A stretch of DNA of 64,000 nucleotides from Escherichia phage ph0021. The stretch's first letter is position 1. Every line of letters begins with the position of its first letter. Both the position numbers and the translations under genes were made by a program. The notes beneath the pieces are model-generated. The model was not told the origin of the DNA and ran no database searches. It saw nothing but the letters and a program-made list of their open reading frames with translations. The stretch lies in the sequence record OP557970.1; one strand, written 5' to 3'. This document shows, in pieces, positions 4,472 through 29,128 of the stretch.

Positions 4472-4501
4472 TTTGTGTTCCTCATGTTATGTCAGTAAGA
4501 C

Positions 4502-6592: not shown

Positions 6593-8686
6593 TTATCCTT
6601 GAACGAACTTGTAAGGCATGTTTGTAATATCTATGCAAGACGCAATAATTCCAAGAGATGATTCTACTTTCTGTTTAATATTTGATGAAACAAATGATGC
6701 AAAGTCAACTCTGTCTTCTATTTCAATATCACCTGTCATTGCAACCAATTCACCAGTTTCCATTAAATGGTCTCCATCATAGATTACCGATTCGGTGAGC
6801 TCTTCCGTGGTCATAACTTCAGCTTGAATGAGTTTTGTATTATTAGATGTTGTTCCGTCATTATTAGAAGCATCGGTTATTTTATTAACTTTGACCATCA
6901 ATCCACGCGGTAGAATAACTTCAGCTTCTGTTGCTATTCCGAGACTTCCTGGATATACAACATTAACTTTATGAGCTCCATCAATTGCCCATCCTATTTG
7001 AACTTTAACATATTCAGGATTTTCTTTATACGCTCTTATTTCGTTTGGATTAATAGTTATTCCTTCTTCATTTTTATCAACTGTTAATTCATTGCGAGCT
7101 TCTGGTTCTAAAAGACCAATACCAGCATGTGTGATTCCAAAACGTCCAAAAATGATAGGAGTTAAAGAAGTAGATACAAAATTTCTGAAGTAGAACACTT
7201 TATTTTTAACTAACGCTTCATATATAGGAGCAGTCATACTTTGAGCACGATAAACTGTAATGCCTTCTGGTATACGGTCACCATTTTCAAAAGCTGAATC
7301 TAAGTTATTTATAGCAGATTCAATTTCTTTTTCACTCATTACATCGTATCGTTCTGGATTGTAACGACCTAAAAGAAGATTATTGATGTCAGTATATCCT
7401 GAACCGCAATATTCTCTAATGCCACGCTTTTGTGATGGAGTATATTTAGAACCATCGCGGGCAATAGTAATATCAATCATTGGACCAGCACCAATTCCAG
7501 AAAAACTGTAAATCATTCGTTTGAGGAATTTAGTTTTTGCTGCGTTCCAGGAATTTTTAGTTATTTCTTCCCAGACTTCATCTGGTTGTCCTTTACGATT
7601 TTTATTATGATTAGCAAGCCATTTATCTTTATAATCTTCAAAGAATTGATTTACAGCTGCTGCGTATTTCTCTAAACATTTTATTGAAGTAGTTGGTTCA
7701 TTTTTAATTGCATTAAAAATTACTTCTTTAATTTTTTCTGAAACTTCACCGACTTGACTCATTGGAAAGAATTTATAATCATAGTGAAGTTCATCTGCCG
7801 TTCCTTCAGCAATAATTTTTGCTGCCTTTGTTTTAGAAGCTAATGAATTAATTCCAATTTTCATTTCTTCTGCTTCGGGAATTAAAGGTGCAGTAGCTGG
7901 TTTATTAAAATTGGCTGCTGTAGATTCATACTTCTGGAATAATTCACTTTCAAATCTAGAAGATTCCAATGACTGACTTTGTGCAATTGCTCTACGGGAA
8001 ATTTTAACTTTAACGATTACAGCTTGGTCAGAACGTTTATCATTTTCTTGTGCAATAGATGCTGCAATTGCTTCATTTTTAGTTACTTGAGCTCCAGTAT
8101 CTTTATTGATATAAACATCACCGACCTTCGATTCAACTTTAGTAAAGAGTTCAGTGCTAATTTCTGGAACTCCTGGAATGTCTTCTAATGATACATTTTT
8201 GCGATGTATAAGAATATATGCATACTTTTTATCGTAATCCCAGAGTTCCTTAAGAAGGACGTATCTGCCACCTGAACGACTACGGATAAGTCTATCAGCA
8301 ATAACTTGAATTTGTCGAGCTTGGCCAGCAGTTTTAGACTTAAGAATACGAAGCATGCAGGCATCAATTTTATATTGACGCATCGTTTGCATTGCAACAG
8401 TAAAAACTGAATTGATATAATTAATTGGGCTTGGACCAAGACCTTTTAATTTAGCAATTGAGCCTTTAGCAGTTAATGTAAAAGGAACAATATGCATCAT
8501 TTTATCGCCCATCTTTAAATCGCGATTAGTATCACCTCCAGATGTATAGGTACATAAACGAAAGCCTGGTTGTTCAATTGCATCATCAACATGAACTGAA
8601 AAAATTTGTGGTATTTTCTTCTTTGGATTTAAGTTTGTAATCGGAAGAGTAGTATCTTCGTCAAATAATTCTGTAATAAGTTCCAT
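6593..8686 (-). CDS. alt: Alt ADP-ribosyltransferase (head-packaged, modifies host RNA polymerase)
   Basis: 697 aa starting MELITELFDEDTTLPITNL; ART R-S-E motifs; located between 54 and 30 as T4 alt. Confidence 0.85.
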   Translation of the reverse strand: MELITELFDEDTTLPITNLNPKKKIPQIFSVHVDDAIEQPGFRLCTYTSGGDTNRDLKMGDKMMHIVPFTLTAKGSIAKLKGLGPSPINYINSVFTVAMQTMRQYKIDACMLRILKSKTAGQARQIQVIADRLIRSRSGGRYVLLKELWDYDKKYAYILIHRKNVSLEDIPGVPEISTELFTKVESKVGDVYINKDTGAQVTKNEAIAASIAQENDKRSDQAVIVKVKISRRAIAQSQSLESSRFESELFQKYESTAANFNKPATAPLIPEAEEMKIGINSLASKTKAAKIIAEGTADELHYDYKFFPMSQVGEVSEKIKEVIFNAIKNEPTTSIKCLEKYAAAVNQFFEDYKDKWLANHNKNRKGQPDEVWEEITKNSWNAAKTKFLKRMIYSFSGIGAGPMIDITIARDGSKYTPSQKRGIREYCGSGYTDINNLLLGRYNPERYDVMSEKEIESAINNLDSAFENGDRIPEGITVYRAQSMTAPIYEALVKNKVFYFRNFVSTSLTPIIFGRFGITHAGIGLLEPEARNELTVDKNEEGITINPNEIRAYKENPEYVKVQIGWAIDGAHKVNVVYPGSLGIATEAEVILPRGLMVKVNKITDASNNDGTTSNNTKLIQAEVMTTEELTESVIYDGDHLMETGELVAMTGDIEIEDRVDFASFVSSNIKQKVESSLGIIASCIDITNMPYKFVQG

Positions 8687-21938: not shown

Positions 21939-23117
21939 TTAAAAGTATTTTTTAAAACTCATCATAACTTTATCATCAACATCATTATCAATCTGTGCAA
22001 CAAGGTAAGATGACAATTCTACTTCTTGTGGCGCAGATTGAACATTATCAGAATTAAGATATTCACGAATCCAAGGATATGGATGTTTAACCGGAGCATC
22101 GGTAATTGGGCATGGAAGACCACACTGTTTCATACGAGATACAGTTAAGTAATCAATAAAGCTCCACATGCTATTTGTATTTAATCCAGGAACATCGCCA
22201 TCTTTAAATAAATGAACTGCCCAGTCTTTTTCCTGGCGGTTAACTTCCATGAAAATATCAACTGCTTCTTGTTCACACTCTTGAGCAATTTTAACCCATT
22301 CATCGCCATCAGTACCGGATTGAAGCTGACGAATAATATATTGGGTGCCTTTAAGGTGAAGCTGCTCATCACGTGCAATGAACTTCATAATCTTGGCATT
22401 ACCTTCCATGATTTCCATGTTCTTATGGAAGTTAAAGGTACATGCAAAAGATACATAAAAACGAATAGCTTCCAATGCGTTGATTACATGCAAACAGAGG
22501 TAAAGAGATTTCATTAGCTCACGCTTCCAATATGTCTCATGCTCAATAGCATCTTCAATAACGTCTTCGTCTGCATTAATTTCTTTTTGGTATTCGATAT
22601 CAGCTTTAGCGTTTTCCCAATAACGAGTTTTAGTCAGAACATCATCATAATAACGTCCAATGGATTCAGCACGTTTCATAATAGCTTCATCTAATACAAT
22701 CTCATCAAATACCTTTGACGGATCAGTATAAAGATTTCGCATGATATGGGTATATGAACGGCTGTGAATAGTTTCACTAAAAGTCCATGTAGCAACCCAT
22801 GTATCAAGACTTGGGTCTGAAATTAACGACATAAGTACAGCAGACGGTGCACGACCTTGAATGCTATCTAGAAGTGATTGATACTTCAGGTTATTAGTAA
22901 AAATATCTTGCTGATATTGAGGAAGCTTGTTAAATTGCGCAGCATCCATCATTAAGTTTACTTCTTCAGGACGCCAGAAAAATGACAACTGCTTTTCGGT
23001 TAAATCTTCAAAAACTTTATGACGTTGAATATCGTAACGCGCAATACCAAGACCTGAACCGAAGAACATAGGTTCTTTTAAAACATCAACTGGATTTGTA
23101 TTAAAAACTGTAGACAT
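21939..23117 (-). CDS. nrdB: ribonucleotide reductase small subunit
   Basis: Continuous ORF with ferritin-like R2 fold residues; likely start MSTVFNTNPVD; no intron interruption visible. Confidence 0.9.
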   Translation of the reverse strand: MSTVFNTNPVDVLKEPMFFGSGLGIARYDIQRHKVFEDLTEKQLSFFWRPEEVNLMMDAAQFNKLPQYQQDIFTNNLKYQSLLDSIQGRAPSAVLMSLISDPSLDTWVATWTFSETIHSRSYTHIMRNLYTDPSKVFDEIVLDEAIMKRAESIGRYYDDVLTKTRYWENAKADIEYQKEINADEDVIEDAIEHETYWKRELMKSLYLCLHVINALEAIRFYVSFACTFNFHKNMEIMEGNAKIMKFIARDEQLHLKGTQYIIRQLQSGTDGDEWVKIAQECEQEAVDIFMEVNRQEKDWAVHLFKDGDVPGLNTNSMWSFIDYLTVSRMKQCGLPCPITDAPVKHPYPWIREYLNSDNVQSAPQEVELSSYLVAQIDNDVDDKVMMSFKKYF

Positions 23118-23848
23118 TAATTTTTCCTCTTTAAAATTCTGCCGCGTTTCCAACCTGGCGGTATAATATCATCTTTACCTATAAGCGTGCATTCACTTCC
23201 ATTATTAATCCATTTCTTACCGCGGATTCCTTTATAATCTCTTGGCTGTATTTTGTCAAACTTTGCGTCAAGCTGATATGCCCATCGAAATCCATAGGCA
23301 TATTGAAATTTACCCTCAGCACAATATTTGATATTTGACCCGTTTCCATTAACTGACCTGGACGCTGCGGCAATAGAGTGAAAGGTTTCTATGAAATCCC
23401 CATCTAATGAGAATTTATGTATTTCGATAGATGGGCATGCATACCTATTCACATTTGATACATGTTGTTTAGTTTCGTTTTTATGATGCTTGCCTAACAT
23501 TCCTCTAGGATGAGGATTATTTTTCCAATATTTCTTAAAGAAATCAGAATTAGCTTTAGCAAATAATTTTCTGTGCAAGCTATACAATCTGTTATTAATT
23601 CTATTACCAGCTTTATCTGTTGCCATTAACGTTAACGCAGAGGCAAGACCAAAATGGCCTTCATTTATCTTGCATAGTAATAGATGCGCTATAAAATGTT
23701 CTCTAGCTGTTAATTCAACTAAATTTTCTTTATCATCAGAACCTCCCATGCATTTAGGGACTATATGATGTGTCTCTTTATATTCGGATAAAGGTTCCCG
23801 AGCCTGAGCTCGGGAAATTAGGTCATTATAGATTTTTTGATAATTCAT
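23117..23848 (-). CDS. HNH homing endonuclease (MobE-like)
   Basis: 243 aa; His-Me finger motif HHIVPKCMGGSDDKENLVELTAREHFIAH; sits between nrdA and nrdB where T4 carries mobE. Confidence 0.75.
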   Translation of the reverse strand: MNYQKIYNDLISRAQAREPLSEYKETHHIVPKCMGGSDDKENLVELTAREHFIAHLLLCKINEGHFGLASALTLMATDKAGNRINNRLYSLHRKLFAKANSDFFKKYWKNNPHPRGMLGKHHKNETKQHVSNVNRYACPSIEIHKFSLDGDFIETFHSIAAASRSVNGNGSNIKYCAEGKFQYAYGFRWAYQLDAKFDKIQPRDYKGIRGKKWINNGSECTLIGKDDIIPPGWKRGRILKRKN

Positions 23849-26112
23849 TACAATTTACACGCTGCACAATCGTCGGCTTTAGGAGTTTCTATTTCATAAT
23901 CATCAGTACCAGAACCATCACGGGTATTATGATAATAGAAATTTTTAATGCCATAATACCATCCGTATAGCATGTCATCAATCATTATTGACATTGGAAC
24001 CTTTCCTTTTGGAAAAATCTGCGGGTCATAATATGTATTCGCTGAAGCTGATTGACATACCCATTTCAGCATAATAGCTACCTGCGTAAGATAAGGTTTA
24101 TTACCTTTCTTAGCTAATTTCCATGTATAATCATAGAGGTCTATGTTATGCTCAATATTGGGCACGACTTGATTAAAGGAACCCTCTTTTGATTCTTTAA
24201 CAGAGACTGGTCCACGTGGAGGCTCGATACCGTTTGTACTGTTAGAAACTTGGGAAGATGACTCACATGGCATAAGTGCTGATAATGTGCTATTACGGAT
24301 GCCAAAGAGCTTAAGGTCTTCCCGCAGCGCCGACCAGTCACAAACGTATTTTGGAGCTGCGATTTGGTCAATCTTTTTATTGTACCAGTCGATAGGTAAT
24401 TCGCCTCGAGACCAACGAGTGTCTGAATAATATTCGCAAGGTCCTTTTTCTTTGGCGAGCTTAATGGATGCTTTAATGAGTCCATACTGTAATCTCTCAA
24501 ATAGTTCATGTGTTAAATCGTTAGCATCTTCATAAGAAGCAAAGTTACTTGCCAGCCAAGCTGCATAGTTAGTAACACCTACACCGAGGTTACGACGCTT
24601 TTTAGCTTTTTCTGCTTCAGGAACTGGATATCCTTGGTAATCCAAAAGATTATCAAGAGCACGAACTTGGACTTCTGCCAATTCATTAATTTTATCTTGG
24701 TCTTGCCAGTCAAAATTATCCAGTACGAATGCAGAGAGAGTACACAATCCAATTTCAGCATCAGGACTATTCACATCATTTGTTGGAATAGCAATTTCAC
24801 AACACAAGTTACTCTGACGAATAGGTGCCTTTTCACGAATAAACGGAGTATAATTATTCGTATTATCGATGAACTGCACATAAATCCTTGCTGTTCCTGA
24901 GCGTTCAGTCATGAGCAATTCAAATAGTTCACGGGCTTTAATGCGCTTTTTACGAATATTAGGGTCTTTTTCTGCTGCTTCGTATAATTCGCGGAAACGG
25001 TCTTGGTCTTTAAAATAAGAATAATAAAGCTCGCCACCCATTTCATGCGGACTGAACAAAGTAATGTAGTCGTTCTTTCCAAAACGTTCCATCATCAAAT
25101 CATTCAGCTGGACGCCATAATCCATATGACGGATACGGTTTTCTTCTACACCTTTGTTATTTTTCAAAACGAGAAGATTTTCAACTTCCAAATGCCAAAT
25201 AGGATAATAAGCAGTAGCAGCGCCGCCACGAATTCCACCCTGTGAGCATGATTTAACAGCAGTCTGAAAATGTTTCCAAAAAGGAATAACACCAGTATGG
25301 CGTACTTCACCCATGCCAATCTTGGAACCTTCGGCACGAATCATACCAACGTTAATACCAATTCCAGCACGTTTGGAGATATATTCAACAATTGAAGCGG
25401 AAGCCTTATTGATAGACTTTAATGAATCACCTGCCTCAATAACAACACATGAACTAAACTGTCGAGTCGGAGTACGACAACCAGCCATAATAGGAGTTGG
25501 TAATGAAATCTGTCGAGTAGATACTGCTTCATAAAAATGAATAACATGTTTTAATCTATCAACAGGTTCATCTTGATGCAATGCCATTCCAATAGTCATA
25601 AATGCAAACTGTGGAGTTTCATAAATTTGACCAGTGGTTTTATCTTTAACTAGATATTTTTCTTTTAATTGCATCGCCCCGGAATAAGTAAATTCCATAT
25701 CCCGCTCATGCTTAATTTTTGATTCTAAAAATGTAATTTCTTCTGCTGAATATTTTGACAATAATTCAGGGTCATATTTACCTTCATTTACACAGTAAGA
25801 AATATGGTCAATAAATGAACATGGTTCATACTGTCCGTACACATGTTTACGAAGAGCGAACATTAGACAACGTGCAGCTACATATTGATAATCAGGCTCT
25901 TCAACCGAAATAGAATTCGCAGCGGCCTTAATGACAATAGTCTGAATATCATCAGTTGTCATTCCATCACGGAGATAAGATTTAATATTTTCATATAATT
26001 CATAAGGATCGACTGATGTTCCTTCAGCTGCCCAAGATAAAACTTTAATAATTTTTTGTGGGTCAAAGCTCTGAGAAACACCACTACTTTTGATAACATT
26101 AATTAATTGCAT
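23848..26112 (-). CDS. nrdA: ribonucleotide reductase large subunit
   Basis: 754 aa, same as T4 NrdA; class I RNR motifs. Confidence 0.95.
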   Translation of the reverse strand: MQLINVIKSSGVSQSFDPQKIIKVLSWAAEGTSVDPYELYENIKSYLRDGMTTDDIQTIVIKAAANSISVEEPDYQYVAARCLMFALRKHVYGQYEPCSFIDHISYCVNEGKYDPELLSKYSAEEITFLESKIKHERDMEFTYSGAMQLKEKYLVKDKTTGQIYETPQFAFMTIGMALHQDEPVDRLKHVIHFYEAVSTRQISLPTPIMAGCRTPTRQFSSCVVIEAGDSLKSINKASASIVEYISKRAGIGINVGMIRAEGSKIGMGEVRHTGVIPFWKHFQTAVKSCSQGGIRGGAATAYYPIWHLEVENLLVLKNNKGVEENRIRHMDYGVQLNDLMMERFGKNDYITLFSPHEMGGELYYSYFKDQDRFRELYEAAEKDPNIRKKRIKARELFELLMTERSGTARIYVQFIDNTNNYTPFIREKAPIRQSNLCCEIAIPTNDVNSPDAEIGLCTLSAFVLDNFDWQDQDKINELAEVQVRALDNLLDYQGYPVPEAEKAKKRRNLGVGVTNYAAWLASNFASYEDANDLTHELFERLQYGLIKASIKLAKEKGPCEYYSDTRWSRGELPIDWYNKKIDQIAAPKYVCDWSALREDLKLFGIRNSTLSALMPCESSSQVSNSTNGIEPPRGPVSVKESKEGSFNQVVPNIEHNIDLYDYTWKLAKKGNKPYLTQVAIMLKWVCQSASANTYYDPQIFPKGKVPMSIMIDDMLYGWYYGIKNFYYHNTRDGSGTDDYEIETPKADDCAACKL

Positions 26113-26429
26113 AAGTCCTCAACTTGAAAATCGTCTTTAAACAATCGGTTAACTATATGAGCTATTATATCACCATGACACGGCTTTGGTTTACATGTGC
26201 ATCCTAGCCTCATTCCACGTAAAGGCTCTAAATGTGCTTTAGTTATTTCTCCGGATTTAATTCGACGTATAAAATCTTTTTTGAATAATTCAATGGCAGC
26301 CTCCCGGCTGCCAGCATCTTTACCGACGTAATTTCCCCAAAATGTACCACGGTGAATATTAACATCAAAGTCGGATTTATATTTATTCACTACTCGGCAT
26401 ATACGGCCTGCGCGGTTGTAGGTGTTCAT
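26103..26429 (-). CDS. hypothetical Cys/His-motif protein (nrdA.1 position)
   Basis: 108 aa; C-terminal [13 protein letters not shown] motif. Confidence 0.4.
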
Positions 26430-26646
26430 ATTGTTCTTCCGTTAAAACAGTAATATCGTAGTAACAGTCAGAAGAAGTTTTAACTGTGGAAATTTTATTA
26501 TCAAAATACTCACGGGTCATTTTATGAGTATAATATTTTTTGCCATAAATGATAATAGGCTGATTTGGTCCTGGAACTTCTAACTCGCTTGGGTTAGGAA
26601 GTGTAAAAAGAACTACACCAGAAGTATCTTTAAATCGTAAAATCAT
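26383..26646 (-). CDS. hypothetical protein (nrdA.2 position)
   Basis: 87 aa ORF. Confidence 0.35.
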
Positions 26647-26669
26647 AAATCCTCACAATTAAATTAAAA

Positions 26670-26984
26670 TTACACCGCCATTTTTCCTTTCAAGACGCCG
26701 TGGGACTGATAATCTTTGAGAACGAAATCTTTAGGCCTGAGTTTAAGAATGTATTCCAATTGTTCTTTAGTAGAAAGATAGCGGAATTTATAAGGCAATC
26801 CGCCTATTATCAGTTCACAAAGCTCTTTAGGTTCACGACGCAAAATTTCTTTACATTGTTCTACGTGATTCATATAGATATGAGTATTACCGCCAGAAAA
26901 TATCAAATCTCCAGGAATAAGATTACACATCTTAGCTACAATATGAACTAACGCAGCATATGATGCAATATTAAATGGAAGCAT
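26670..26984 (-). pseudogene. td: thymidylate synthase exon 2 only (td remnant)
   Basis: Translation LPFNIASYAALVHIVAKMCNLIPGDLIFSGGNTHIYMNH is the TS C-terminal third; the apparent start ATG lies in intron-derived sequence; no exon 1 found in the window. Confidence 0.75.
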
Positions 26985-27128
26985 TATGTTCAGATAAGGT
27001 CGTTAATCTTACCCCGGAATTATATCCAGCTGCATGTCACCATGCAGATCAGACTATATCTCCAACTTGTTAAAGCAAGTTGTCTATCGTTTCGAGTCAC
27101 TTGACCCTACTCCCCAAAGGGATAGTCG
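26985..27128 (-). mobile_element. 3' portion of td group I intron (remnant)
   Basis: Non-coding, structured GC-rich segment between the td exon 2 splice junction and an ORF ending in the I-TevI C-terminus. Confidence 0.55.
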
Positions 27129-27380
27129 TTAGGCATTTATGTAGAACCAATTCCATTTATCAGATTTTACACGATAAGTAACTAATCCAGACGAAATTTT
27201 AAAATGTCTAGCTGCATCTGCTGCACAATCAAAAATAACCCCATCACATTCATCTTCCCATCCCATATCACGTAAAAGATGTTCAGCTTTTTCAACGAGT
27301 TCAGAATCTTTACCAATGATATTAAAATACCATTTACCTCTAACTTCTGAATCTTTGATGCTCTGACGTTGTAATCTCAT
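27129..27380 (-). CDS. chimeric ORF carrying the I-TevI C-terminal HTH DNA-binding domain
   Basis: 83 aa; last ~39 aa CDGVIFDCAADAARHFKISSGLVTYRVKSDKWNWFYINA match the I-TevI C-terminus; N-terminal 44 aa unrelated; own early promoter and AAGGAG RBS. Confidence 0.6.
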   Translation of the reverse strand: MRLQRQSIKDSEVRGKWYFNIIGKDSELVEKAEHLLRDMGWEDECDGVIFDCAADAARHFKISSGLVTYRVKSDKWNWFYINA

Positions 27381-27399
27381 TTTATTCTCCTTAGTTGAT

Positions 27400-27435
27400 A
27401 GGGTAATAGTATCACACTACTACCCTTCCGTAAAC
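27400..27435 (-). promoter_or_regulatory. T4-type early promoter
   Basis: GTTTAC (27430..27435) and GATACTAT -10 on minus strand. Confidence 0.55.
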
Positions 27436-27800
27436 TACTTTTTGAAAGTTTTTCGCAAAAGTTCAATGATTTCATCTACATTGTTTTCGTCTACAATGCA
27501 GTGAATTTTTGTTACGCCAGAAATCTTGTCTTCGACTTCATCTTCTTCAAAAGTCGATTCTTTATACTCACGAAAACAATGAAATTCATCTTCACAGACG
27601 TTGAAGTAAAAATGCTTTCCATTTGCGCATTTAATGTGTTTTATTACTCTAAATCCATCAGCAGAGAAAGCTTCTTTAACTTCAAACCATCCGCCATTAT
27701 CTCGAATAATTTTAACTATTGATGAATTAGAACGTGGGCGATAATTAATAAATGTATCAATAAGTCTTGGAACAAGCTCATACTTTTTGCCAATATACAT
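27435..27800 (-). CDS. hypothetical protein (frd.2-like position)
   Basis: 121 aa ORF. Confidence 0.4.
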   Translation of the reverse strand: MYIGKKYELVPRLIDTFINYRPRSNSSIVKIIRDNGGWFEVKEAFSADGFRVIKHIKCANGKHFYFNVCEDEFHCFREYKESTFEEDEVEDKISGVTKIHCIVDENNVDEIIELLRKTFKK

Positions 27801-27844
27801 TACGTTTTCCTCATTTTAATAGGGGCTTTATAGCCCCTTAATAA

Positions 27845-28096
27845 TTATTGTTCAATCAGTCCCATGTAAAATTCTGCGTCTTCAGAATCCATGCCATCAC
27901 AATATTCATTAGCCATAAAGCGGGTGAGGTCTTCAAGAGGACCTTCAATGACAATAGAAAAATTGCAATAATTGGGATCATCATGAATACTTGTGATACT
28001 AAGTTCAGGATAACGATTACGAATAATTTCTTCAATATATTCAAAATCAACGATGTCAATATCAACTTTAGCCATATTATTTTCCTCTTTAATCAT
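27845..28096 (-). CDS. hypothetical acidic protein (frd.3-like position)
   Basis: 83 aa ORF with its own early promoter. Confidence 0.4.
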
Positions 28097-28114
28097 CAGC
28101 AGTATTGCCGATAG

Positions 28115-28148
28115 TTGTATAGTACCATAAAGCTTTATGCTTGTAAAC
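28115..28148 (-). promoter_or_regulatory. T4-type early promoter with A/T-rich UP element
   Basis: GTTTACA (28143..28148), TATACA-like -10, upstream ttttgtgaaaaaattttgaaataaaaaa; near-repeat of 45390..45450. Confidence 0.55.
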
Positions 28149-28164
28149 CGTTTTGTGAAAAAAT

Positions 28165-28197
28165 TTTGAAATAAAAAAGGGGACCTCTAGGGTCCCC
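28165..28197 (-). terminator. rho-independent terminator after gene 32
   Basis: Hairpin ggggacctctagggtcccc followed by U-run on the minus-strand transcript. Confidence 0.65.
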
Positions 28198-28219
28198 AAT
28201 TAATTAGTAATATAATCTA

Positions 28220-29128
28220 TTAAAGGTCATTCAAAAGGTCATCCAGGTCCGTGTCATCAGCACTAGATGAACTGCCAGAGCTTGAGCTCATAAAATCATC
28301 TTCAGTTTTTGTTTTGAAGTCATCAACATTGAATGCATCCAAATCATCAGCAACTTTATCAGCTTTCTTAGCGGCAGTTGCTGCGGCACCACCCATAGCA
28401 GCAGTTCCCATAACTTGACTGAACTTAGTGCTCAGTTCTTCAAACGATTTGAATTTATCTTTAGAAGTCATTTCAGAAAGGTCAACCATTTGTTCGAACA
28501 GTTCTTTCTGGAAAGATTCATCATCAATGTTTGGAATCGCAGATTGATTCAGGAATTTAGATTCGTCGTAGTTACTAAAACCAGAAACTTGTTTAACTTT
28601 CAGTACAAAGTTAGCACCTTCCCACGGACAAGTTACATCAACCGGAGTTTCACCCATTTCAACATCAACTGCAATCATTGCATTGATTTTATCCCAGATT
28701 TTCTTACCGAAACGGTATTTAAATACTTTGCCTTCATTTTCTGGAGCAGCTGGGTCTTTTACTACAAGAATGTTAGCCCAGTAAGAAGTTTTACGTTTAA
28801 CAAGACCGTACTCTTTATTGTCAGTATTATACAAATCATTTTTACTGATGTACTGACATACTGGACAAGAATCGTAATCACCGTAGGTAGATGAGCATGT
28901 TTCGATATACCATTTACCATTTTTCTTGAAACCGTGATTTACAAGAAGTGCAAATGGTGCTTGTTCATCATTTTTAGACGGAAGAAAACGAATTACTGCT
29001 TGACCGTTACCCGCATTATCGAGTTTCAGTTTCCACTCGCCTTTATCTTCAGAAGAAAAACCACCTTTATTTCCAGCCAGTTTAGCCATTTGTGCAGCGA
29101 GTTCAGCAGTAGATTTACGTTTAAACAT
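28220..29128 (-). CDS. 32: single-stranded DNA-binding protein gp32
   Basis: 302 aa; [18 protein letters not shown]-terminus and acidic C-terminal tail [22 protein letters not shown] as in T4 gp32. Confidence 0.95.

Follow-up and report, generated by a model that had tools for sequence, protein, structure and literature searches.

Within the 64,000-nucleotide stretch of the Escherichia phage ph0021 genome that we analyzed (sequence record OP557970.1; hereafter the window), td, the thymidylate synthase gene that in intact relatives such as T4 is interrupted by a group I intron encoding the homing endonuclease I-TevI, is present only as remnants. The minus strand carries three elements: td exon 2, a noncoding piece of the 3′ part of the intron, and an 83-amino-acid (aa) open reading frame (ORF) that joins the start of frd.1 to the end of the I-TevI gene (Table 1). 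A preliminary description of this DNA had listed exon 2, an intron remnant, and an ORF with an I-TevI tail, all of which we found in place, and had proposed a deletion of about 2 kb that took frd, the dihydrofolate reductase (DHFR) gene, along with td exon 1 and most of the intron. Breakpoint mapping, domain scans, and a genome search bear this proposal out. We consider it very likely that the locus was shaped by a genuine, recent, and single deletion in a Tequatrovirus between two 10-bp repeats, at the cost of frd, td exon 1, and the greater part of the intron together with I-TevI.

Remnants of td and its intron

The only td coding sequence is exon 2, preceded by a noncoding 3′ portion of the intron that the preliminary description had put at about 145 nucleotides (nt). 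The ORF at 26670–26984 encodes 104 aa (MLPFNIASYA…KGKMAV), and its match to the Pfam thymidylate synthase family (PF00303, Thymidylat_synt) is limited to profile positions 176–266 of 266. Its scores against the thymidylate synthase models of NCBIfam reach at most 79.6 bits, compared with cut-offs of 108–576. The encoded sequence is 89% identical to residues 184–286 of T4 Td, and exon 2 itself is 99.7% identical to exon 2 of phage T4_ev151. The ATG of this ORF (26982–26984) consists of the final three nucleotides of the intron, which ends …CATAATG immediately before the CTT… of the exon, and exon 2 proper covers 26670–26981. The catalytic cysteine, Cys156 of the PPCH motif in T4 numbering, is encoded by the absent exon 1, and the remnant falls short of a full-length ThyA/Td protein, understood as a PF00303 match with its catalytic cysteine. 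The loss of this residue, and of two thirds of the protein with it, leads us to predict that no thymidylate synthase can be made. As a separate observation, it is routine for gene callers to list td exon 2 as an ORF of 104 aa beginning at the terminal AUG of the intron, in other phage records too, and several 104-aa "thymidylate synthase" entries from intron-containing phages share one protein cluster. Such a call alone is therefore no sign of a deletion.

The intron remnant is equally well preserved as far as it goes. Together, the noncoding segment (147 nt) and 121 nt of adjoining ORF sequence (27129–27249) correspond to nt 750–1017 of the T4 td intron, its last 268 nt, with identity at 267 of 268 positions (99.6%). 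Homology to the 3′ splice site is retained, since the remnant ends in …CATAATG directly before exon 2. The Rfam group I intron model (Intron_gpI, RF00028) gave a partial match at 27030–27211 with 39.3 bits (E = 2.8e-8), below the gathering score of 50. In that alignment the posterior probability was high in the 3′ core only, and the 5′ positions of the model were forced onto coding sequence. The remnant represents part of the catalytic core only (the P7/P3′/P8/P9 region); it has neither a complete core with splice-site helices nor a 5′ splice site beside an upstream exon, both of which membership in the group I class would call for. With its 5′ part absent, it would be incapable of splicing.

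Table 1. Features of the td remnant and its immediate neighbors (positions in the window)
Feature	Position	Strand	Description
nrdA.1, intact, downstream	26103–26429	minus	nrdA.2/nrdA.1 pair: Pfam DUF5496 (181.7 bits) and DUF4326 (78.7 bits)
nrdA.2, intact, downstream	26383–26646	minus	nrdA.2/nrdA.1 pair: Pfam DUF5496 (181.7 bits) and DUF4326 (78.7 bits)
td exon 2	26670–26981	minus	103 codons and stop; pseudogene fragment
td intron 3′ remnant, noncoding	26982–27128	minus	147 nt, ends …CAUAAUG
Hybrid ORF, in frame	27129–27380	minus	83 aa; frd.1 codons 1–47, I-TevI codons 207–245, and stop
Deletion junction, single copy of ATGTGATGGG	27240–27249	minus	Last base of hybrid codon 44 and codons 45–47 (C-D-G)
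frd.1-derived expression signals	27387–27435	minus	Promoter-like element and AAGGAG
frd.2, intact, upstream	27435–27800	minus	Pfam FRD2, 106 bits
frd.3, intact, upstream	27845–28096	minus	Pfam Phage_FRD3, 129 bits

Breakpoints and the case for a genuine deletion

The intact locus of T4 (NC_000866), RB3 (KM606994), and T4_ev151 (LR597660) has the same flanking genes in the same order as the window, namely, 32, frd.3, frd.2, and frd.1 on one side and nrdA.2, nrdA.1, and nrdA on the other. Identity across the flanks is 96–97.5%. Specifically, RB3 is colinear on the frd.2/frd.3 side (96.4%) and T4_ev151 on the nrdA.2/nrdA.1 side (97.5%). What distinguishes ph0021 from these relatives is the absence of 2.06–3.0 kb between two copies of the sequence ATGTGATGGG.

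Alignment to the frd-td region of T4 and of the two other relatives placed the breakpoints at 27240–27249. Window positions 27385–27241 correspond to T4 146009–145865, in frd.1, and positions 27249–26649 correspond to T4 143814–143217, which comprises the I-TevI tail, the end of the intron, and exon 2. These two flank alignments overlap by 9 nt, because frd.1 of T4 reads ATGCGATGGA at this place. With T4_ev151, which is the closest intact relative on the right flank (99.8% over 603 nt), the left alignment ends at 27240 and the right one starts at 27249, and the overlap is the exact 10-mer ATGTGATGGG. This 10-mer occurs twice in the T4_ev151 locus, at position 1849 in frd.1 and at position 4501 in I-TevI, 2,652 bp apart, and once in the window. 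Thus, the repeat stands at both endpoints in the undeleted genome and a single copy stands at the junction. On the left flank, the listed matches stop at about 27240–27241, and on the right flank the match of every relative begins exactly at 27249. Flanks that both align to intact relatives and overlap in a repeat, one of whose two copies is kept, are what a deletion between short direct repeats classically leaves behind. How much is missing depends on the reference: 2,059 bp when T4 is taken, 2,652 bp with T4_ev151, and 3,005 bp with RB3, where two extra small ORFs lie in the interval; RB3-like relatives carry up to two such ORFs there. ATGTGATGGG is one of 11 listed 10-bp direct repeats in the 3.6-kb region and is not unusually long.

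From these breakpoints, the following course of events can be proposed. The ancestor would have been a Tequatrovirus with the standard order of frd.1, small ORFs in some cases, frd, and td, the last consisting of exon 1, a group I intron with I-TevI, and exon 2. Illegitimate recombination or replication slippage may then have joined the two copies of ATGTGATGGG, one in frd.1 codons 44–47 and the other in I-TevI codons 206–209. Such a step would have removed everything between the repeats, that is, the 3′ end of frd.1 (some 40% of that gene), frd, td exon 1, the 5′ part of the intron, and I-TevI codons 1–206. The remnants of exon 2 and intron are 99.6–99.8% identical to intact relatives and contain no stop codons, which points to a deletion that is evolutionarily recent.

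The same junction is present in a second deposited genome. Positions 26300–28300 of the window are 100% identical to GenBank OR584013.1, named "Pseudomonas phage PsgM02F," a Tequatrovirus. The window spans the end join of that record without a mismatch in the stretches of 858, 8,487, and 10,001 nt that we compared by script, and BLAST against it returned 100% identity over 2,001 and 5,001 nt. In a 5-kb search, 447 records covered 80% or more of the region; OR584013.1 alone matched unbroken among the entries listed, and in each of hundreds of related records the match broke exactly at the junction. Exact-match scans did not find the junction in collections of viral contigs and metagenome contigs, and a protein search with the 83-aa ORF found only the identical protein deposited for Escherichia phage ph0021 (WAE77568.1). 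This junction protein, the 104-aa exon 2 ORF (WAE77567.1), and a circle of 165,155 bp are common to the ph0021 (2022) and PsgM02F (2023) records. According to the published accounts, ph0021 (vB_EcoM_Uniso21, OP557970) came from sewage, on E. coli, in 2021 and PsgM02F came from coffee leaves in 2022, in the same laboratory; the reported sequencing coverage was very deep, from short reads assembled with a Shovill/SPAdes/Pilon pipeline (PMC9692438, PMC10815195).

To search for the missing parts elsewhere, we covered the whole 165,155-bp genome by tblastn and blastn with T4 Frd, Td exon 1, full Td, I-TevI, frd DNA, exon 1 DNA, and the intron as queries. The remnants described above were the only significant matches, with none for Frd, Td exon 1, the GIY-YIG portion of I-TevI, or the 5′ stretch of the intron (T4 nt 1–749). 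The preliminary description had reported these elements missing between nrdA.2 and gene 32; the absence holds genome-wide, and neither a full-length td nor an frd exists at another place in the assembly. The single tblastn match to T4 Frd (26% identity, E = 0.005) lies antisense to annotated genes, and we judged it to be a chance match rather than a DHFR. No DHFR gene (PF00186) is annotated in the PsgM02F record, and the ThyX motif RHRxxS does not occur in any open frame of at least 100 aa in the genome. OR584013.1 does contain a second "thymidylate synthase" (98794–99534, outside the window). It is gp42 dCMP hydroxymethylase, with a match to PDB 1b49 at E = 1e-165 and scores below all thymidylate synthase cut-offs. 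The PsgM02F record thus gives the label "thymidylate synthase" to both gp42 and the 104-aa ORF, even though no working enzyme of that kind exists in the genome.

An alternative is that the junction is an assembly artefact or a minority variant and that the phage really carries an intact frd–td region. The available sequences are short-read assemblies from one pipeline and one laboratory, and the junction is found in no other public sequence, as an artefact would have it. Yet the junction protein and the circular genome length agree between two separately deposited genomes, the products of two sequencing efforts, which argues against an artefact. Furthermore, a 10-bp repeat is far shorter than k-mers of up to 127 and cannot collapse an assembly graph, and reads from frd or td exon 1 would have formed a contig, of which the assembly has no trace. 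Finally, one kept copy of a direct repeat is the expected mark of a biological deletion. We therefore regard an artefact or minority variant as quite unlikely.

Another possibility is that td is split, with exon 1 and the 5′ half of the intron encoded elsewhere and the two halves spliced in trans to give a working thymidylate synthase. Split halves of the td intron are reported to splice in trans in vitro, and both exon 2 and the 3′ intron remnant are undamaged here. Nevertheless, the tblastn and blastn searches found no exon 1 or 5′ intron sequence anywhere, the best chance matches having E values of 0.12 or more. A trans-split td has next to no probability on this evidence, and we rule it out for this genome.

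Our preferred reading, a genuine and recent deletion, nonetheless has several points standing against it. Both records derive from one laboratory and one pipeline, and the confirmation is not fully independent. What we compared were assemblies rather than reads, and a mixed population in which only part of the genomes is deleted is compatible with them. The flanks are mosaic, the left one being closest to RB3-type phages and the right one to T4_ev151. The dependence on host enzymes that we discuss below is a deduction from gene content. Moreover, the published burst sizes conflict, being 10 per cell when ph0021 was grown on E. coli and 124 per cell when PsgM02F was grown on Pseudomonas (PMC9692438, PMC10815195), and we did not use these growth data as a phenotype.

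The two records call for comment in their own right. PsgM02F and the earlier ph0021 from the same laboratory appear to be one genome. In the 2022 paper, ph0021 did not lyse P. syringae pv. garcae IBSBF-158 (PMC9692438); in the 2024 paper, PsgM02F, formerly labelled ph002F, grows on that strain (PMC10815195). Conflicting host claims for what is apparently one genome suggest a sample mix-up or cross-contamination, and one genome under two names with incompatible hosts affects inferences about host range. In addition, the ends of the 165,282-bp record OR584013.1 (1–127 and 165156–165282; around 8361–8487 in the window) overlap by 127 bp, which looks like the k-mer size of the assembler. This overlap closes the PsgM02F genome to a circle of 165,155 bp, although its paper says that circularization failed.

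The hybrid of frd.1 and I-TevI

The 83-aa ORF is made of two recognizable parts. Its first 47 residues are 100% identical to residues 1–47 of T4 frd.1 by tblastn and match Pfam DUF5417 (PF17438) above the cut-off, with 54.7 bits over profile positions 1–59 of 91, so that homology of the N terminus to frd.1 and DUF5417 may be taken as certain at the sequence level. The preliminary description had called this part an unrelated N terminus of 44 aa, which our comparison contradicts. With 47 of about 80 residues kept, the frd.1 domain is not full length. The second part, by contrast with the first, had been assigned correctly: the last 39 residues or so were said to be the C-terminal helix-turn-helix domain of I-TevI, and aa 45–83 are 100% identical to I-TevI residues 207–245 by tblastn. 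Residues 45–80 match the Pfam I-TevI DNA-binding domain (I-TevI_DNA-bd, PF20987) with 83.7 bits against a cut-off of 27, over profile positions 16–51 of 51, and the sequence qualifies as an I-TevI C-terminal DNA-binding domain by this profile. Similarly, the chain in PDB 1i3j has the same sequence at residues 78–116 as the hybrid at aa 45–83; the identity begins at chain residue 78, which corresponds to I-TevI residue 207, and the stretch aligned by HMMER runs from 43 to 83 in the query and from 76 to 116 in the chain.

The rest of the endonuclease is missing. There is no Pfam match to the GIY-YIG domain (PF01541) in the 83-aa ORF, and the genome-wide tblastn search with I-TevI returned only residues 207–245. 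Also absent from the hybrid is the linker with the zinc finger and the minor-groove helix (residues ~93–206). With the GIY-YIG domain, linker, and zinc finger all lost, the genome is predicted to encode no I-TevI endonuclease. The I-TevI operator and the promoters of that gene were lost as well.

Expression signals for the hybrid would come from frd.1. An AAGGAG ribosome-binding site lies at 27387–27392, 6 nt 5′ of the hybrid ATG, and a promoter-like element extends from GTTTAC (27430–27435) to TGTGATACT (about 27408–27416). The stretch from GTAGTTTAC to GGGTAGTAGTGTGATACTATTACCCTATCAA is invariant among the window, T4, RB3, and T4_ev151 except for three bases directly after GTTTAC, and the upstream stretch GTTTAC…TGTGATACTAT is almost unchanged in these three relatives. 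A simple sigma-70 scan gave no score to this element, and from its conservation and its resemblance to T4 early promoters we infer that it functions as a promoter. The preliminary description had credited the N terminus with an early promoter and an AAGGAG ribosome-binding site of its own. Both the AAGGAG and a conserved promoter-like element are indeed present, but they are simply the start of frd.1. Since the hybrid keeps both signals, it is probably expressed. Between frd.2 and frd.1, T4 has a hydrophobic mini-ORF of 22 codons (MFAPYIMAAVMLVCLYLLIKAC) with its own ribosome-binding site, as does T4_ev151; it is absent from the window (27381–27434, set against 7006–7143 of the extracted T4 locus and about 1632–1703 of that of T4_ev151) and from RB3.

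Given an intact reading frame, it is natural to ask whether the hybrid has been selected as a functional protein. According to this view, a free I-TevI helix-turn-helix, made early from the frd.1 promoter, would attach to the I-TevI operator or td homing site in relatives infecting the same cell and act as an anti-homing factor or repressor, or would target the beginning of exon 2 in the genome that encodes it. The ORF is in frame, its promoter-like element is conserved and its ribosome-binding site strong, and it keeps I-TevI residues 207–245, which form the C-terminal 39-residue end of the crystallized DNA-binding domain. Furthermore, the I-TevI DNA-binding domain as a whole can act independently as a repressor (PMC2988022). 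However, neither the zinc finger nor the minor-groove helix, both part of the domain that acts independently, is present here, and the frd.1 part has been cut to 47 of 80 residues. The 10-bp repeat at the endpoints accounts for the mechanism and for the reading frame alike: C-D-G is read from it in one and the same codon phase in frd.1 (…E-C-D-G…) and in I-TevI (…S-C-D-G-V…), and the fusion is hence automatic and no evidence of selection. An AlphaFold2 model of the hybrid, built on an alignment of 14 sequences, was unconfident, with a pLDDT of 43. The allele is also confined to a single genome, with no sign of spread or selection. For these reasons, the hybrid protein is most likely a functionless by-product, and we give a selected function only a slim chance. 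Slimmer still is the chance that the early-expressed hybrid is a domesticated anti-homing or repressor protein directed against co-infecting T-even phages; if that were true, a decayed homing endonuclease would have been turned into a weapon in phage competition.

Beyond the junction, the minus-strand order of genes is that of T4: 32, frd.3, frd.2, the hybrid ORF, the intron remnant, td exon 2, nrdA.2, nrdA.1, nrdA, an HNH endonuclease gene, and nrdB. The endonuclease gene, at 23117–23848 on the minus strand between nrdA and nrdB, encodes 243 aa with HNH and NUMOD1 domains. It is larger than T4 mobE (141 aa) plus nrdB.1, and the same 732-nt gene occurs in T4_ev151. In the window, nrdB is free of introns. 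A strong terminator hairpin, GGGGACCCTAGAGGTCCCC followed by a run of T, lies 3′ of gene 32. It is overlapped by a 36-aa ORF (28089–28199, minus strand), annotated in OR584013.1 as hypothetical protein CDS0236, which is probably a spurious gene call.

Comparison with related systems and consequences for the phage

Deletions between short direct repeats have eroded I-TevI in other phages. In at least 24 contigs, for example, in that of Escherichia phage vB_EcoM_F1 (MG867727; 2501–2668 of the extracted locus), we found a mini-I-TevI ORF of 55 aa in which the start of the GIY-YIG domain is fused to the last 21 residues. It arose from a deletion of 570 bp between CATTTTAAA repeats inside the I-TevI ORF. 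As in ph0021, the endonuclease was reduced by a short-direct-repeat deletion that kept an in-frame mini-ORF with the C-terminal tail, and the mini-I-TevI alleles are a precedent for the same process acting on this element. In those alleles, however, the deletion stays within the intron ORF and leaves the td exons (called as 183 and 104 aa), frd, and the remaining intron intact, whereas in ph0021 it extends beyond the intron and takes out the host gene together with neighboring genes.

A similar contrast holds with the life cycle of homing endonucleases more generally, in which degeneration is followed by loss, as illustrated by the defunct I-TevIII of the T4 nrdB intron (PMC1865063, PMC2790892, PMC2988022). 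The likeness is that a homing endonuclease gene, once fixed in a genome, is cut short by deletion. In the classical sequence, however, the endonuclease decays, the intron is later lost precisely, and the host gene works; here an imprecise loss inactivates td.

For its metabolism, the phage resembles laboratory td and frd mutants and deletions of T4, which are viable on thyA+ hosts. Like them, it is predicted to be viable on such hosts and to depend on the thymidylate synthase and dihydrofolate reductase of the bacterium. It differs from them in being an environmental isolate from sewage, neither engineered nor selected, and in carrying the hybrid ORF. Most likely, the phage draws dTMP from host ThyA and regenerates tetrahydrofolate via host FolA. 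Other genes of nucleotide metabolism, that is, cd, 56, 42, 1, tk, nrdAB, and nrdDG, are annotated. The joint loss of frd and td is metabolically coherent, because DHFR mainly recycles the dihydrofolate made by thymidylate synthase.

The preliminary description had attached particular weight to a phage lacking both Td and Frd, citing roles for these proteins in the baseplate as well as in dTMP synthesis. The absence of both stands, but its significance was overstated. To our knowledge, modern baseplate structures contain neither Td nor Frd, which leaves the baseplate argument weak and gives the claim behind it no support. In addition, as dispensable genes of auxiliary metabolism, frd and td have been placed in the "Quasicore" of T4-like phages (PMC2993671). 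As both enzymes can be had from the host, the gene loss is real but unremarkable, an event of a well-known kind that has hit genes known to be dispensable. The allele is nevertheless previously undescribed, and neither of the two phage papers mentions thymidylate or dihydrofolate (PMC9692438, PMC10815195).

Among related phage records, 533 matched td exon 1, 528 matched frd, and 473 matched exon 2; the shorter exon 2 query is less sensitive, which keeps these counts from deciding how many relatives lack exon 1 or frd. Against this background of more than 500 related records that match td exon 1 and frd, a Tequatrovirus isolated from sewage propagates, as we read its genome, without a thymidylate synthase or a dihydrofolate reductase of its own. 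This gene loss fits the view of td and frd as auxiliary genes rather than structural necessities. The decay of a mobile intron usually spares the gene that hosts it; in this phage, the host gene was lost along with the intron.

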